Positions 4,704 through 60,198 of a DNA stretch of 64,000 nucleotides are shown here, one piece after another (position 1 is the first letter of the stretch; every line of letters begins with the position of its first letter). Source of the stretch: a virus; the IMG/VR virus record IMGVR_UViG_3300028654_000015, positions 1 to 64,000 of that record, one strand, 5' to 3'. The translations under genes and the position numbers were made by a program. The notes under the pieces are model-generated. The model saw only the letters and a program-made list of their open reading frames with translations. It did not search any database and was not told the DNA's origin.

Positions 4704-5012
4704 ATGCGTAAACTCAAAGCAGAAATAGACCCGAAACAAACAAACTTCGAAATTTTTGTGAATACGTGGACTAATATAGGCGAAGTATATGCATCTTATT
4801 GTAACGTGGTACCAATATTTGAATTTGACACATCAGAGTGTGATTTAAAAACAGTTTTATATAATATAAAACAGAAAAATCAAGGATATATTCCTGTAGA
4901 TACCATTGTTTTACATATTGGTAATAATATGAATAGTAATAGATATCGAGTGAAAGATTATATAAAAAATTGGGGAAATATCTGGACCAGATTTCAAACA
5001 TATGGAAAATAA
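4704..5012 (+). CDS. YGNxW-family paralog 11
   Basis: DLKTVLY ... YIKNWGNIW. Confidence 0.8.
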   Translation: MRKLKAEIDPKQTNFEIFVNTWTNIGEVYASYCNVVPIFEFDTSECDLKTVLYNIKQKNQGYIPVDTIVLHIGNNMNSNRYRVKDYIKNWGNIWTRFQTYGK

Positions 5013-5211
5013 AAAGACAGAACTTACTTCTATTGATAAAAAAGATTTGGAATTACTTCTAGCAATACAAGAATGGGCAACAGAAGCAATGAATATTTTA
5101 AGTTTGAATTTGAATGAATTTTCAGAGAAAGAATTGCAGAATGTAATTGAATATCAAACTGTCAATAAACTTTTAAAAATTTACGAAAAATATAATAAAA
5201 ATGTCAGTTAA
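5002..5211 (+). CDS. hypothetical protein
   Basis: tiled ORF. Confidence 0.55.
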   Translation: MENKKTELTSIDKKDLELLLAIQEWATEAMNILSLNLNEFSEKELQNVIEYQTVNKLLKIYEKYNKNVS

Positions 5212-53234: not shown

Positions 53235-54542
53235 ATGTATCTTTCTGAAGACCTTCAAAAGAAATGGGAATCGGTGCTAGAGCATCAGGATCTTCCCAAA
53301 TTAAATTCACATAAGAAAGCAGTTCTTTCGGTTCTTCTTGAGAACCAAGAAAGAGAAACTCGCAACGATGGAACAACCCGTTCTGGACTTCTCCAAGAAA
53401 GTTCGCCAGCAAATGCTAGTGCAGGGTTTCCAAATAACAACGCAAATCTAAAAGGTTATGATCCAGTTTTGATCTCTTTGATCAGACGTGCTCTTCCTAA
53501 CCTAATCGCATTTGACGTGTGTGGCGTTCAGCCAATGAAGGCTCCCACGGGATTGATTTTTGCAATGAAGTCACGTTATACCTCACAAGGTGGAAACGAA
53601 GCATTATTCTTCGAAGCAGACAGTTCTTTCTCTGGTAATCTTCAAGATGCTAACTCATCTCCTCTTGATCCATTTGGTCCTCCTACACCAGGTCGTCCTC
53701 TCACCACATCTGATGGTGAAGCATTGGGTGACGGTACTGCAACCTCTACCAAGCCTGCTCAATTCCCAGAAATGGCGTTCAGCATTGACAAGGTAACAGT
53801 TGAAGCAAAGACTCGTGCTCTTAAAGCAGAGTACACAATGGAAATCGCGCAAGATCTTAAAGCAGTACACGGACTTGATGCTGAAGCAGAACTTGCGAAT
53901 ATTCTTTCAGCAGAAATTCTTGCTGAAATCAACCGAGAAATTATCCGTACTATTTACAACAACGCAGTACTTGGTGCACAGAATGATGTTGCAACCCCTG
54001 GTACTTTTGACCTTGATGTAGATTCAAACGGACGTTGGTCAGTTGAAAAGTACAAAGGTTTGATGGTTCAGATCGAAAGAGATGCTAACGCAATTGCGAA
54101 AGCAACTCGTAGAGGTCGTGGTAACTTCCTGATTTGCGATTCTGATACTGCTTCTGCTCTTTCAGTTGCAGGTCTTCTCGACATCGGAAGTGCTCTCAAA
54201 GATAATCTAAATGTTGATGATACTGGTAACACTTTTGTCGGTGTTCTTAACGGACGTTTCAAAGTGTTTATCGATCCATATGCAGTACTTGGTAGCAACT
54301 TCTATGTTTGCGGATTCAAGGGTGCAAATCAATACGATGCTGGTCTCTTTTACTGCCCTTACGTACCTCTTCAGATGGTTCGTGCTGTTGGTGAAGAAAC
54401 TTTCCAACCTAAAATTGGATTCAAGACTCGTTATGGTATCGTAACTAACCCATTTGGTAATGCAAATGGTAACTCAGACGGTTCTCTTGCACAAAGAGCA
54501 AACGTCTATTATCGTGCCGTGAAAGTACTTCATTTACTTTAG
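53235..54542 (+). CDS. gp23: major capsid protein
   Basis: DPVLISLIRRALPNLIAFDVCGVQPM, HGLDAEAELANIL, FQPKIGFKTRYG. Confidence 0.98.
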   Translation: MYLSEDLQKKWESVLEHQDLPKLNSHKKAVLSVLLENQERETRNDGTTRSGLLQESSPANASAGFPNNNANLKGYDPVLISLIRRALPNLIAFDVCGVQPMKAPTGLIFAMKSRYTSQGGNEALFFEADSSFSGNLQDANSSPLDPFGPPTPGRPLTTSDGEALGDGTATSTKPAQFPEMAFSIDKVTVEAKTRALKAEYTMEIAQDLKAVHGLDAEAELANILSAEILAEINREIIRTIYNNAVLGAQNDVATPGTFDLDVDSNGRWSVEKYKGLMVQIERDANAIAKATRRGRGNFLICDSDTASALSVAGLLDIGSALKDNLNVDDTGNTFVGVLNGRFKVFIDPYAVLGSNFYVCGFKGANQYDAGLFYCPYVPLQMVRAVGEETFQPKIGFKTRYGIVTNPFGNANGNSDGSLAQRANVYYRAVKVLHLL

Positions 54543-54573: not shown

Positions 54574-54601
54574 AAAAATGGGTCCTTCGGGACCCATTTT
54601 T
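54574..54601 (+). terminator. intrinsic terminator with cUUCGg tetraloop
   Basis: AAAAATGGGTCC-TTCG-GGACCCATTTTT after gp23. Confidence 0.9.
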
Positions 54602-54611
54602 ATTGGTTCTA

Positions 54612-54640
54612 TTGACGGAAAGAAAAACTTGTGTTATTCT
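54612..54640 (+). promoter_or_regulatory. sigma70-type promoter, probably leaderless
   Basis: TTGACG-N17-TATTCT with TG extension; ATG at 54647. Confidence 0.6.
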
Positions 54641-54646
54641 AATAAC

Positions 54647-56002
54647 ATGAGAAAACCCAAACAATATTATAATTCTATCACTAAAAAGATGATAGAAAAT
54701 GATGTGGAAAATAATCTATCTCAATATGAGATTGCCAATAAGTATGGCATTACTAGACAATTTGTTAGAGATTTGTTTCATAAATTTGGAATTACAATAT
54801 CAAATAGAAGAACACAACCACCAATAGATAAAGATATTCTAATAAAAGAAAATCATAAAAATCTATTAACCTTAAAACAAATTTCAGCAAAATATAATAG
54901 AACATATAAATCTATAAAGGATATGTTTAAGAAATATAACATATCACCCAAGAATAATGTAATTCATAAAAATATTATAAAAAGAGAAGAAATATTAAAT
55001 TCGATAGAACTAAATCAATTATATGGAAAATTAACAAAAATAGAAGTACAAAAACAATTAAATATTGGACAAAAATATTTGGATGAAGCACTAAAAGAAA
55101 AAAATATAGAGAGGAAATTCTTTAATAGATCTTCACAAGAAAAAGAACTTGAGGCACATTTGAAAGCAGTAATGCCAAATGAAACTATATTATCAAATGT
55201 TAAAAACATAATTTCAAAAGAAATAGATATATTTGTTCCTAATAAAAATGTTGGTATAGAATTGCATGGGTTATATTGGCATAATCCTATAGTAAAAAAT
55301 ATTGGTAAGAAATATCATTACGATAAAGCCACAGAAGCACACCATAAAGATATACTATTGCTTCAGTTCTTTGAAGACGAATGGATATTAAAGAAAGAAA
55401 TATGCAAATCTATTATATTAACAAATCTTGGAATATACCAAAAATTGTATGCGAGAAAATGTAGTATTAAAATAATCACAAACCAAGAAACGAAAGAATT
55501 TTGTGAACATAACCATCTTCAAGGTCACACAAATGCTAGTGTTTGTCTTGGATTATATTATAATACAACCTTAGTTTCTATAATGTCTTTTGGACGACCA
55601 AGATTTCATAAATCGGCACCAAAAGATCAATGGGAATTATTGCGATTTTGTTCTATATTGAACACCAAAGTTATTGGTGGTGCATCTAAATTATTTTCTT
55701 ATTTTATTAATAATTTTAAACCGAAGCATATATATTCATATTCAGATAGAAGAATATCAAAAGGAGATTTATATACGAAACTAAATTTCAAATTAGAAAA
55801 GATAACAGAACCGAATTATAGTTATATTGTAGGCAAACAAAGATCAAATAGAATGAATTGGCAAAAAAACAAATTGAAAACTAAATTAAAAATATTCGAT
55901 CCAAACTTAACAGAAATCGAAAATATGGTTCTTAACAAGTACTTTCCAATATACGATGCAGGAAATATATTATGGTCATGGTCAAATGAAAATAAATCTT
56001 AA
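54647..56002 (+). mobile_element. free-standing Hef-like homing endonuclease with N-terminal HTH repeats
   Basis: EIANKYGIT/QISAKYN HTHs; EIDIFVP..GIELHGLYWH..FEDEW nuclease; YARKC..NHLQG..GGASKL..YSDRR..YDAG; true start downstream of the terminator. Confidence 0.8.
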
Positions 56003-57074
56003 TACACTAGACCCTCTAAACTTTCGAATAACTAAACATATAATTGCTAATGAAGAGTGTACATTTGTTACTCCTCTATCCATAATGGCCGACTGGACTG
56101 CCCACAACTTACATCTAAGATCTTCTATCTGGAATTCACAAGGTGAATTAATTTCTGCGAGTTACCCAAAGTTTTTTAATCTAGAAGAAAAACCAAATAT
56201 TACACCATTTGACGGAAATTTAACTAATTGTTCTATCGTAGACAAAGTAGATGGATCTGCCCTAATATTTTCTAGATACAAGGGGCAACAAATACTTCGC
56301 ACTAGAGGTAATATCGATGCATATAATATGCCCAATGGTGATGATTTAATATATTTTGAACAATATATTTTACCCAAAATTCCAAAAGATGATACACTAA
56401 ATGCTTCTTATATTTTTGAATGGACCTCTCCAAGAAATAGAATTGTGGTAGATTATGGCAATCAACCAAGATTTCAATTGACTAATATAATATCTCATAC
56501 AGACTATTCACTAACATCACAGAATGAATTGGATACATTAGCATTCGAAAGAAAATACGATAGACCAATGAGAATTAGATTCGAATGTAATAGTATAGAA
56601 TTGTTAATTAACGATATTAAAGGATGGAAAAATAGTGAAGGTATTTGTTTATATTACAATAATGATCAAAATATAAGAAAAATCAAATCAACATGGTATT
56701 TAAAATGTCATGCAATGAAATCTCAATGTAATATGAAAACCATGCTAGAATTATATGATGTATATGAAAGACCAGATAAGAAAACATTCCATGAAAGATT
56801 TGATAAAGAGTTTGATTTTGAAATCTCTACTATAGCAAAACCTTTGATTAATCAACTATATGAAGCAGAGACAAAAACCAAAGAATCGAGAAATGAAGTA
56901 ATTCAGTTTACTATAGAAAATTCTAGTTTAAACGATAAAGACTTTGCTATGTTGGTGAATAAGAAATACCAACTAGAAAACTATACAAAGCCATTAGCAT
57001 TCGCATTAAGAAAAAAGAAATCAATAGATCTTATTGTACTAAACATGATGAAACATGAATTATCTACAATATAA
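55986..57074 (+). CDS. rnlA: RNA ligase 1 (T4 RnlA-like)
   Basis: KFFNLEE, DKVDGS adenylation motif, FEW, EG, KIKS.WY. Confidence 0.8.
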   Translation: MKINLNTLDPLNFRITKHIIANEECTFVTPLSIMADWTAHNLHLRSSIWNSQGELISASYPKFFNLEEKPNITPFDGNLTNCSIVDKVDGSALIFSRYKGQQILRTRGNIDAYNMPNGDDLIYFEQYILPKIPKDDTLNASYIFEWTSPRNRIVVDYGNQPRFQLTNIISHTDYSLTSQNELDTLAFERKYDRPMRIRFECNSIELLINDIKGWKNSEGICLYYNNDQNIRKIKSTWYLKCHAMKSQCNMKTMLELYDVYERPDKKTFHERFDKEFDFEISTIAKPLINQLYEAETKTKESRNEVIQFTIENSSLNDKDFAMLVNKKYQLENYTKPLAFALRKKKSIDLIVLNMMKHELSTI

Positions 57075-57318: not shown

Positions 57319-57873
57319 ATGGTAGATATAAGAGCATTTTCTTCACCTTTAAAGTATCAAGTTTCGATTACAAGATGTCCAAATACGACATTTTTCGTAC
57401 AATCGGTGACTCTGCCCGGTCTCACAATAGGTACTGCAACGGCTGGCACCCCCTTCAGTAAACTATTCTTTCAAGGAGACCACTTAACCTGGGGTACCTT
57501 CGATCTAACCTTCAAATTAGATGCAGAATGGAGTAATTGGTATGAAATTCAAAATTGGATAATAGGTCAAGGGTTTCCACGTAATTTTGGTGAATACCAA
57601 GCATTGAAGTCCGGAACCGATAAAAATCTTGATAATGGACCATTAGTACCGCCTAAAAAACAACAATTGAAAAGAAAAGATGGCGATATTTACTCTCAAA
57701 TTATATTAGAGATATTAACAAGTAAGAACAATCCAATTGTTGAATTCCAATTTAAAGATGCATTTCCAGTTGCGCTAAGTCCCTTGGAACTAGATTCTAC
57801 TAAAGAAGATGTTGAATTTTTAACTGCTTCTGTTACATTTAAGTATACGTACTACACAGTTATACGTCCTTAA
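57319..57873 (+). CDS. gp3: tail tube terminator / tail completion protein
   Basis: PNTTFFVQSVTLPG, NWYEIQNWI, FKDAFPVALS, ASVTFKY. Confidence 0.9.
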   Translation: MVDIRAFSSPLKYQVSITRCPNTTFFVQSVTLPGLTIGTATAGTPFSKLFFQGDHLTWGTFDLTFKLDAEWSNWYEIQNWIIGQGFPRNFGEYQALKSGTDKNLDNGPLVPPKKQQLKRKDGDIYSQIILEILTSKNNPIVEFQFKDAFPVALSPLELDSTKEDVEFLTASVTFKYTYYTVIRP

Positions 57874-58410: not shown

Positions 58411-58647
58411 ATGAAGGTTCCAAATTGGTTAATGACCATCAAAGAAGGTGATGAGTTAATTTTGTATTTTCCCTATACAGGGGATCTAGTTAATGCTAAA
58501 GTATTAACCAAACAAGATCACATGAATGGATTTTGTGCGAAATATAAAATAAAAGACTTAAATTTTAGTAAATGGTTGTTCTATGCAGATTATGCAAATG
58601 ATGATGCAAATTCTATGAAGTGGTTAGCATATGAAGTCTCAAAATGA
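58411..58647 (+). CDS. hypothetical protein
   Basis: tiled ORF. Confidence 0.55.
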   Translation: MKVPNWLMTIKEGDELILYFPYTGDLVNAKVLTKQDHMNGFCAKYKIKDLNFSKWLFYADYANDDANSMKWLAYEVSK

Positions 58648-58828
58648 AAAAATGATTGCATGGAATCCTAAAACTGTCATAGGAATGGGAGATAAATGTA
58701 GAGTGCTAGATGGTACATTTACTGGCATTCTTAATGATCGTTTAATAGTTTTTGTTGACCCATATACACTTAGAGATGAAACTATAGAAGAATCTAGAAA
58801 AAGATTGGTAAATCATAATGAAGATTAA
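58631..58828 (+). CDS. hypothetical protein
   Basis: tiled ORF. Confidence 0.5.
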   Translation: MKSQNEKMIAWNPKTVIGMGDKCRVLDGTFTGILNDRLIVFVDPYTLRDETIEESRKRLVNHNED

Positions 58829-58830
58829 AC

Positions 58831-59211
58831 ATGAAGTTAATAATAGCAGGTTCTAGAAATTATAATAATTATAATTTCATCAAAGAATCAGTTCAAAATA
58901 TAATGAGAGAGTCTTATAATTCTGGTATTGCATTACAGATCGAAAGTATAGTTTCTGGTGGTGCTAATGGTGTTGATAAATTAGGAGAACAGTTTGCTAA
59001 AGAATTCAATATACCATGTATTGTATTTCCTGCTAATTGGTCAAAACATGGTAAAGCGGCAGGACCAATAAGAAACAAAGAAATGGCAGAATTTGCAGAT
59101 ACATTGATAGCATTTCCAGATATGAAAAGTATTGGAACTATTAATATGATTACAACCATGAAAAATTTAAACAAAAAAGTATATGTAGTGGAAATTAAAG
59201 ATGTTAAATGA
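58831..59211 (+). CDS. SLOG/DUF2493 (YspA-like) nucleotide-binding protein
   Basis: IIAGSR, VSGGA.GVD, W..HGKAAGPIRN.EMA. Confidence 0.85.
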   Translation: MKLIIAGSRNYNNYNFIKESVQNIMRESYNSGIALQIESIVSGGANGVDKLGEQFAKEFNIPCIVFPANWSKHGKAAGPIRNKEMAEFADTLIAFPDMKSIGTINMITTMKNLNKKVYVVEIKDVK

Positions 59212-59365
59212 CCTTGACGAGGAATTGATAAAATATTTGCTTCCAGATATGGAAATAAGAGAATATGCTATAAAACTAGCAAAAGAAGTTCTAGAAGAAA
59301 TACGACTAGATTCTATAAGAATAGAATCAAAGAAAGCATGGCAACAACATGAAAATGGAGATTGA
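59201..59365 (+). CDS. 54-aa mini-protein A ending WQQHENGD (not in ORF track)
   Basis: Own translation MLNDLDEELIKYLLPDMEIREYAIKLAKEVLEEIRLDSIRIESKKAWQQHENGD; fills the gap. Confidence 0.65.
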   Translation: MLNDLDEELIKYLLPDMEIREYAIKLAKEVLEEIRLDSIRIESKKAWQQHENGD

Positions 59366-59570
59366 ATCATATCAAGAACTACAAGCAATTCATGGATTAG
59401 ATGCACAAAATGAATTGGTGAAAATTCTTTCGGATGAAATTCTTGCAGAAATTAATAGAGAAGTAATTAGAACAATATATAATGAAGAAAGACATGAATA
59501 CTATTATGAATTTCAAAAACAAAAACGTAATGATATAATAATATGGTGTGATCATGAGAATGGAGAATGA
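59349..59570 (+). CDS. mini-protein B containing a gp23 spine-helix copy, ending WCDHENGE
   Basis: 28/37 aa identical to residues 206-242 of this genome's gp23. Confidence 0.8.
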   Translation: MKMEIESYQELQAIHGLDAQNELVKILSDEILAEINREVIRTIYNEERHEYYYEFQKQKRNDIIIWCDHENGE

Positions 59571-59758
59571 GAATCCATAAAATTATAGACTATATAATGA
59601 GAAGGGCAAATGAAGCATCTTGTTTGGGACAAGAATTTAATAAAGATTTATTATTAGATATAGAATTGAGTAGATTTGATGAATATGCAAATGAATTATT
59701 AAATATATTATATGAAGAAATATCATACAATTGGTATACAAATCATATTGGAGAATAA
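59567..59758 (+). CDS. mini-protein C ending WYTNHIGE
   Basis: ANELLNILYEEI weakly echoes AELANILSAEI; shared C-terminal motif. Confidence 0.65.
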   Translation: MRIHKIIDYIMRRANEASCLGQEFNKDLLLDIELSRFDEYANELLNILYEEISYNWYTNHIGE

Positions 59759-59760
59759 TA

Positions 59761-60198
59761 ATGGCTACCTTAGAAGAACTAGAAAATGAATGGTCTAAAG
59801 ATTGTAAGATAGATAGAACAAATCTAGATGGCGAATCTTTAAAAATACCGGAACTTCACAATAAGTACTACAAACTCTATATAAGAGAACGTGTACAATT
59901 CAAACAAGATGAATTCACTTTAGATGAATTCCTAAAAACAAAAACTCAGTATTACCAAGGTAAACTAGATAAACAAACTCTAGATGAAAATAAGTGGGAA
60001 CCATTTGATTTGATACTAATAAAACAAGATTTAGATCTATATCTAGATGCAGATAAAGATATAATCAAAAGAAAATTGAAAATGCATCTTCAAAAAGAAA
60101 AAGTAGAATTTCTTGAGAGTATAATCAAAACAATCAATAATAGATCCTTTATTATTCGTGATGCTCTCGAATTTATTAAGTTTTCTAGTGGCAAATAA
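59761..60198 (+). CDS. uvsY: recombination mediator UvsY
   Basis: W.KD.KID...LD.ESLKIP.LHNKY, YLDAD, I..R.F.I; upstream of uvsW. Confidence 0.9.
   Translation: MATLEELENEWSKDCKIDRTNLDGESLKIPELHNKYYKLYIRERVQFKQDEFTLDEFLKTKTQYYQGKLDKQTLDENKWEPFDLILIKQDLDLYLDADKDIIKRKLKMHLQKEKVEFLESIIKTINNRSFIIRDALEFIKFSSGK

Follow-up and report, generated by a model that had tools for sequence, protein, structure and literature searches.

A predicted chimeric mini-gene with an excerpt of the major capsid protein in a small-ORF array of a T4-type phage

The described systems closest to the element analyzed here are the major capsid protein gp23 of phage T4 (Pfam family PF07068; PDB 5vf3, 6uzc, 7vs5) and a few genes and host factors that derive from it, read it or resemble the present locus in layout. 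Gene 24 of T4, a second gp23-derived gene located downstream of gene 23, encodes a complete HK97-fold vertex protein. The Lit protease reads the Gol peptide of T4 gp23, which lies in the conserved N-terminal part of the protein and is different from the helix considered below. CapRel-SJ46 also senses a phage capsid protein (PMC13728456). With respect to gene layout, the available portions of two reports (PMC2839356, PMC4122927) describe the modular shuffling, in T4-type hyperplastic regions, of PeSL cassettes, i.e., small, non-essential open reading frames (ORFs) that are located in a variable region between core genes and have a repeated short motif at their borders; no core-gene excerpts inside the cassettes are described in those portions. 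In the literature that we searched, no description of a phage-encoded capsid decoy or of gp23 excerpts in small ORFs was found. Here we analyze a stretch of 64,000 nucleotides (hereinafter the window; positions 1 to 64,000 of the IMG/VR record IMGVR_UViG_3300028654_000015, which comprises 78,367 bp and is ~44% complete according to CheckV) from a T4-type myophage with AT-rich DNA, with the focus on an ORF of 73 aa (59349-59570, + strand; hereinafter mini-ORF) in which a segment of gp23 is joined to an unrelated tail. Sequence comparisons suggest that the mini-ORF is a genuine chimeric gene specific to this lineage, with a gp23 excerpt as the front part and a short tail the end of which is encoded by a repeated gene junction.

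Residues 5-45 of the mini-ORF product (P0001), encoded at 59361-59483 (+), correspond to residues 202-242 of the gp23 encoded in the window (435 aa; 53235-54542, +; the counterpart of the excerpt is at 53838-53960), with 29 of the 41 residues identical (BLASTP, E-value 4e-18). This alignment contains the 28 identities over 37 positions that were reported in a preliminary description of the locus made from the sequence without database searches. The Pfam Gp23 model (PF07068) recognizes residues 5-46 with an E-value of 4e-13 and 50 bits, compared to the curated cut-off of 24.4, and a clade-specific hidden Markov model (HMM) of gp23 from 50 relatives yields 3e-17 in a search of all six-frame ORFs of the 78-kb record. 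Only positions 156-197 of the 376 positions of the Pfam model are covered; the other 32 residues are unrelated, and as described previously, the C-terminal tail (residues 46-73; 59484-59570, +) has no similarity to gp23. Compared to T4 gp23, the mini-ORF keeps ~41 of the 376 model positions, lacks the A-domain, the P-domain sheet, the I-domain and the N-terminal parts, and adds the unrelated tail; because most of the gp23 domains are missing, its product cannot form a capsomer. The mini-ORF product falls far short of a near full-length HK97-type fold and, by sequence comparison, is classified as a homologous excerpt of gp23 and not as a capsid protein. In being a second gp23-derived gene downstream of gp23 in a T4-type genome, it resembles T4 gene 24, from which it differs in that 41 residues are retained instead of the complete fold. 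No second full-length gp23-like gene was found in a gp23 search of the record.

The similarity can be mapped onto the well-characterized T4 protein: residues 4-43 of the mini-ORF product align to residues 271-310 of T4 gp23, and the complete excerpt (5-45) corresponds to approximately 272-312. In T4, the short P-domain helix region and the spine helix both lie in this stretch, with residues 292, 306 and 307 located in the latter; the stretch also encompasses the sites of the head-length mutations A275T, D285V and D287V/N as well as those of the gp31-bypass changes G292S, V306I and V307I (PMC9546572). Accordingly, the original identification of the segment with the backbone helix of the capsid fold holds by T4 numbering, with the short P-domain helix added. 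At the positions equivalent to T4 V306 and V307, the gp23 of the window (residues 236-238; 53940-53948) has I-I; in T4, V306I and V307I belong to a triple change by which the gp31 co-chaperonin becomes dispensable (PMC9546572). AlphaFold2 prediction from the single sequence of the mini-protein yielded one long helix, with a large spread among the five models, and is uninformative; the prediction for a complex of gp23 (alignment of 41 rows) with the mini-protein received a score of 0.01, which speaks neither for nor against an interaction.

Many short gp23-like proteins in sequence collections are frameshifted or chimeric calls, which would fit an error of assembly or gene calling as the explanation of the mini-ORF. 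We regard this explanation as hardly credible. A contig from a second sequencing run spans 58456-59610, i.e., the mini-ORF and its neighbors, with zero differences, and pieces from two further runs agree with it; the exact mini-protein is recorded on two contigs, one of which is 113,894 bp long. Given the identical, independently obtained contig, the mini-ORF is not an assembly chimera. The window sequence is present in rhizosphere metagenome runs.

The mini-ORF belongs to an array of cassettes located between gp3 (57319-57873, +) and UvsY (59761-60198, +; Pfam PF11056), which is followed by UvsW. Four small ORFs of this array share the tail motif H-x(1,2)-[GE]-[DE]-stop, which among the 1,033 ORFs of the record is found only in these four (all at 58628-59755), namely, the 65-aa ORF (58631-58828, +; ends with N-H-N-E-D), the 54-aa ORF (P0007; 59201-59365, +; ends with H-E-N-G-D), the 73-aa mini-ORF and the 63-aa ORF (P0006; 59567-59758, +; ends with N-H-I-G-E). 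The last 8 residues of the mini-ORF tail, W-C-D-H-E-N-G-E, are held in common with the 54-aa ORF. The mini-ORF has an ATG start codon, with a second in-frame ATG at 59355, and a TGA stop codon; upstream, its start overlaps the 54-aa ORF's stop, and downstream, the 63-aa ORF's ATG overlaps its stop (ATGA). The initial notion of a stand-alone mini-protein needs to be modified with respect to this context: the ORF is real, but it is one of four cassette ORFs with a shared tail, and one of the other three probably contains a second gp23 piece (see below).

The borders of the cassettes are repeats. The mini-ORF is flanked by 18-nt direct repeats, CATGAAAATGGAGATTGA at its start (59348-59365, +) and CATGAGAATGGAGAATGA at its stop (59553-59570, +), which are identical in 16 of the 18 positions, and related 24-nt copies close the 65-aa ORF and precede UvsY. 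The first of these junction copies, J1 (AAATCATAATGAAGATTAAACATG; 58810-58833, +), matches the UvsY start junction AATCATAATGAAGATTGA of L011 and L014 (here and below, L numbers denote loci from viral contigs); the last one, J4 (59740-59763, +), precedes the real UvsY start, with GGAG followed after 7 nt by the ATG at 59761. Altogether, four junction copies bound the four small ORFs. In L011 and L014, unrelated ORFs located just upstream of UvsY end with N-H-N-E-D and overlap the UvsY start ATGAAGATTGA, with which the window copy at 58812 agrees over 16 nt without a mismatch. The shared tail is thus explained by repetition, within the array, of the junction at which UvsY starts in the relatives. 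Furthermore, the first codons of the mini-ORF (M-K-M-E-I-E) resemble the UvsY start of the same two relatives (M-K-I-E-E), and the similarity to gp23 begins at a short match, ATTGAA in the mini-ORF and ATGGAA in gp23. Both features would fit a crossover at microhomology.

This anatomy suggests a scenario for the origin of the array in which the four copies of the UvsY start junction of the relatives came to bound four small ORFs. A gp23 piece would then have been copied into one of the cassettes, by template switching or by illegitimate recombination at the ATTGAA/ATGGAA match, leaving the 18-nt direct repeats on either side of the mini-ORF, and a second gp23 piece would have entered a neighboring cassette. 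In its present state, the mini-ORF would be translated by coupling to its neighbors and kept by selection as a small helical protein. The resemblance of the array to the PeSL cassettes extends to ORFan content at the same spot that differs among close relatives. The difference lies in the repeat, which in the array is a coding gene junction, the copy of the UvsY start, instead of a sigma-70-like early promoter with a stem-loop terminator. No terminator-like sites were detected and promoter-like sites are not enriched (25 vs. 21.3 expected); the late-promoter sequence TATAAATA was not found near the array.

The 54-aa and 63-aa ORFs that adjoin the mini-ORF are paralogs (39% identity over 36 residues; E-value 0.007; shuffle P 0.003), and both show marginal similarity to the spine helix. 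A spine-helix core in all three tandem ORFs could not be established because the best profile matches of these two ORFs, although located on the helix, had E-values of 0.058 and 0.028, and shuffles were non-significant against the whole gp23. The possibility that the 3' end of the 63-aa ORF is a duplicate of the 3' end of the 78-aa ORF of the window was also considered and dropped, given the lack of BLASTP support, with only a 14-nt repeat in common. No relative of the 63-aa ORF was found in IMG/VR.

The 65-aa ORF probably, but not certainly, contains the second gp23 piece, in residues 28-48 (58712-58774), which correspond to residues 332-351 of the gp23 of the window. The clade-specific HMM matches residues 29-49 at HMM positions 345-365 with an E-value of 4.5e-4 over 2,023 ORFs, hhalign against the 41-row gp23 alignment gives a probability of 89% and an E-value of 2.2e-6, and the shuffle test yields P <= 0.0017; the assignment is not certain because the general Pfam Gp23 model gives an E-value of only 0.24. 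The two pieces lack colinearity with gp23; between them lies a conserved YspA-type gene. With the same HMM, no extra gp23 pieces were detected in 181 other T4-type loci (1.5 Mb total), so that the occurrence of two pieces within 700 nt is unusual and does not represent background.

Relatives of the mini-ORF were sought in 50,697 phage records (tblastn), a protein collection of 5.8 billion clusters, IMG/VR, metagenome contigs and 1.84 billion representative proteins. The latter search yielded three short matches to the same gp23 segment that are not simple broken gp23 calls. The first is the P0143/P0156 family of 78-aa proteins, with 22 member sequences in two 90% clusters; among the cluster members listed, the contig counts sum to more than 50, with one member on 33 contigs and the longest contig of 180,843 bp. 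P0156 matches the Pfam Gp23 model with an E-value of 2.8e-14 in the same gp23 region, including a strand and both helices; a scan of genome contigs for P0156 gave no match. In L184, the P0156-family ORF closes a glycosyltransferase operon and has, on both sides, 24-nt direct repeats that are identical in 23 of the 24 positions (positions 4988 and 5233; a partial copy is present at 5201). In the same locus (L184:4986-5497), the 78-aa excerpt and the next ORF, of 91 aa, have a common N-terminal peptide, D-F-K-F-G-R-D-N. The spine-helix part of P0156 is matched, with an E-value of 4.7e-6, by the PHROG family phrog_14392 (47 residues, no assigned function), which comes from cultured phages; this suggests that small helix-only relatives may already be present, unannotated, in isolate genomes. 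The second case, P0077, is a homolog of the ORF that follows gp23 in L101-L103 (L102:5712-6110; marine T4-type contigs) with an in-frame insert of 50 residues from the gp23 helix region; it is possibly chimeric, being known from a single contig of 1,092 bp. The third, P0113 (98 aa; JGI contig of 161,886 bp), combines a Tat-like (twin-arginine-like) N-terminus with the same gp23 helix stretch. In the mini-ORF, P0156 and P0077, the excerpt ends at HMM positions 254-256.

Every other database match is confined to residues ~4-48 of the mini-ORF product and comes from gp23 genes or frameshifted gp23 calls; this outcome includes the tblastn search for short helix ORFs in other phages proposed in the preliminary description, which returned only gp23 genes or broken gp23 calls and no ortholog with the tail. 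One of the sampled loci also contains a split gp23: in L118 (6519-7662), two ORFs cover HMM positions 5-265 and 359-447, with ~90 positions missing.

At the DNA level, the excerpt is only 67.5% identical to the corresponding segment of the gp23 gene of the window over 123 nt, with 13 of the 41 codons identical. By a codon-by-codon hand count among 37 codons, 16 of the 28 codons for the same residue differ, and the estimates by the NG86 method are 0.77 for the proportion of synonymous differences (pS; saturated) and 0.20 for that of non-synonymous differences (pN). These values bear out the earlier statements that most synonymous positions differ and that the mini-ORF is not a fresh copy of the gp23 of the same phage. 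Against all 54 sampled gp23 segments, pS is similarly saturated (0.6-0.8) and pN is 0.16-0.24. The GC content at third codon positions is 0.07 in the excerpt vs. 0.24 in the gp23 segment, indicating that the copy adopted the local codon usage. The best DNA identity over the 41 codons, 73%, is to Pelagibacter phage HTVC008M (78.5% over a BLAST stretch of 107 nt), which is also, via the gp23 helix, the best cultured DNA match to the queried 1.5-kb stretch, followed by cyanomyophages. The closest of the 204 distinct gp23 helix peptides matches in 30/41 residues, and in the set of 1.84 billion representatives, the identity reaches ~72% over most of the helix and 76% over shorter stretches.

The peptide is far better preserved than expected of freely drifting DNA, as the preliminary description had proposed. 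In 5,000 neutral simulations starting from the gp23 segment of the window, the mean number of identical residues was 16.8 and the maximum 25, compared to the observed 29; starting from the closest sampled gp23 segment, the maximum was 27. Unconstrained drift from any sampled gp23 is rejected. The further claim that the peptide is conserved as such does not follow from the gp23 comparison alone: most of the synonymous divergence may predate the capture, having accumulated between gp23 lineages, and the signal of purifying selection could predate the capture as well, given an AT-rich donor gp23 that is missing from the sample.

The latter possibility leads to the main alternative explanation of the mini-ORF, to which we assign a substantial probability, albeit well below even, namely, that it is a functionless by-product. 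A piece of gp23, probably from an unsampled AT-rich relative that co-infected the same host, would have been template-switched into a pre-existing cassette ORF and would now be drifting toward decay, with the frame still open because both the piece and the recipient ORF were coding until recently. The orphan status of the mini-ORF in all collections and the flanking direct repeats, which can be read as a scar of recombination or replication, are compatible with this explanation, and so are the broken gp23 pieces, mostly frameshifted calls, that are numerous in metagenomic protein collections. In addition, 7-9 residues depart from gp23 positions that are 88-100% conserved, as would be the case under relaxed constraint. 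However, no donor was found (the best candidate being the 73% DNA match and the 30/41 peptide match given above), whereas ~9 post-capture changes under neutral drift predict a donor with ~90% identity. The 9 residues that are rare in gp23 all map to positions 5-29 of the mini-ORF product and avoid positions 30-45 (hand-computed combinatorial P ~0.006, post hoc). Decay is also difficult to reconcile with the presence of two gp23 pieces in one array compared to none in the 181 other loci, with the three heavily diverged neighboring cassettes that are still open, coupled ORFs despite a frequency of stop trinucleotides of 8.7% in the region, and with P0156, the 78-aa excerpt of similar build that is intact on many contigs in another phage.

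Several further observations weigh against a functional chimeric protein. The shared tail, being encoded by a nucleotide junction, need not be a functional tag; the coding signal of the tail is non-significant (P 0.11 compared to a stop-free null), and the chance probability of its 28 open codons is 0.078. No ortholog with the tail was found in any of the collections searched, nor did IMG/VR contain a match to a degenerate DNA pattern that encodes the exact peptide of the second half; conservation of the mini-gene in related phages was thus not observed. There is zero polymorphism in the mini-ORF across the contigs of four runs, a search of sequencing runs yielded no RNA run with the window sequence, and the clade is poorly sampled, the closest gp23 among the viral-contig loci being 76% identical. 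Neither of the two ATG codons of the mini-ORF is preceded by a Shine-Dalgarno sequence, but the same is true of 46 of the 62 long genes of this phage, so that this feature is uninformative. The recurrence of the same segment in other small proteins is in part a detection effect because the helix was the query. Taken together, the sequence evidence on selection for the mini-protein appears indirect and mixed.

If the mini-protein is kept, its capsid ancestry might still be irrelevant, with the gp23 helix recruited simply as an available amphipathic helix that serves, for example, in self-association or in the binding of an unrelated host or phage target. The helix keeps its hydrophobic stripe in full whereas conserved polar gp23 positions (the equivalents of D10, K12, E20 and N25) are changed, and the 54-aa and 63-aa neighbors are helical-looking paralogs without significant gp23 similarity. 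Among the small ORFans encoded in T4 variable regions, there are some with host targets, an example being T4 55.2 (PMC4396842). We consider this possibility improbable, given that E-I-N-R-E, the most gp23-specific motif, and its surroundings are unchanged, that the second gp23 piece in the array is non-helical, and that capsid excerpts occur elsewhere (P0077, P0156). As for the changed positions, two of the three T4 head-length sites (A275, D285 and D287) fall on rare residues of the mini-ORF product, with Y at A275 and Q at D287; with a hand-computed hypergeometric P of ~0.12, this overlap is only a lead.

The gene that directly follows gp23 (54578-56002, +) brings up yet another explanation, in which the excerpt would act or have originated at the DNA level, as a cleavage-site decoy or a spare repair template, and its reading frame would be incidental. 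The 474-aa product of this gene matches homing/HNH endonuclease PHROGs (E-values 5e-96 and 2e-86), with homologs in the same place in L016, L024 and L004. Nonetheless, such a role or origin appears very improbable: the 67.5% identity to the gp23 DNA of the same phage is too low for homologous repair, the differences concentrate at synonymous sites, which indicates constraint at the protein level instead of the DNA level, and in the L184 case, neither gp23 nor an endonuclease is found nearby (5.7 kb covered). In the endonuclease-like protein, a Mom-like domain (Pfam, 2.8e-6) is also present at the C-terminus and a weak helix-turn-helix at the N-terminus; homologs of the protein adjoin gp23 in L016 (on the opposite strand), L024 and L004/L089/L092. 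The position of this gene after gp23 recalls that of segD, which lies between genes 23 and 24 of T4.

The endonuclease-like gene is followed by an RNA ligase gene (55956-57074, +; Pfam RNA_lig_T4_1, PHROG 562), the start of which overlaps its end by 47 nt; no counterpart of this ligase was found in the 181 other loci searched. The interval from gp3 to UvsY comprises seven small ORFs, of 112, 78, 65, 126, 54, 73 and 63 aa, in this order. The 126-aa ORF, inside the cassette array (58831-59211, +), belongs to the YspA/SLOG family (Pfam YAcAr, 4.8e-13), with homologs in the same interval in L011, L014 and the short fragment L013, and homologs located elsewhere in L026, L027, L037 and L039. Among the viral-contig relatives, gp23, gp3 and UvsY are commonly close together. 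What lies between gp3 and UvsY is not the same in L016, L011, L012, L014, L010 and L015; specifically, there is no such array in L016, the closest relative, and the spot is occupied by other content in L011, L012 and L014. The gp3-UvsY gap is a variable hot spot.

The explanation that we favor, tentatively and with a probability that we put slightly short of even, is that the mini-ORF is a chimeric mini-gene that was born in a cassette and has been kept and translated as a soluble mimic of a gp23 segment. Its role, which is a matter of speculation, would be to mimic the segment that in T4 holds the head-length and gp31-bypass sites, and its partner might be whatever reads that segment, i.e., either a host factor or a folding or assembling capsid protein, be it that of the same phage or of a rival. 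The capsid decoy and the dominant-negative role envisaged in the preliminary description would both be speculative variants of such mimicry. The logic of the decoy idea is that of Gol/Lit and CapRel-SJ46, where a capsid protein, as a short stretch or as a whole, is readable by host defense; the parallel with the mini-ORF is only an analogy.

On a broader scale, T4-type phages might repeatedly make and keep capsid excerpts in which a single contact segment, conserved in the major capsid protein, is released as a free peptide, a generalization that at present we deem rather unlikely. Such excerpt genes would be born by templated insertion between short direct repeats, and their products could serve as mimics in capsid folding and assembly, in conflicts between co-infecting phages, or against host capsid sensors; the four-cassette array in the window would then be a small, young example of an undescribed class of genes. 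If capsid excerpts are kept for function, they would constitute a new kind of phage accessory gene, in which pieces of an essential structural protein are reused as free peptides, and the 41-residue excerpt would provide an experimental handle on what reads the spine-helix region in folding, head-size control and immune sensing. If they are scars only, the locus documents how, in variable regions of T4-type phages, new ORFs are seeded from core genes by template switching, a route that is apparent in the flanking repeats of two unrelated phages, the one represented by the window and that of L184.

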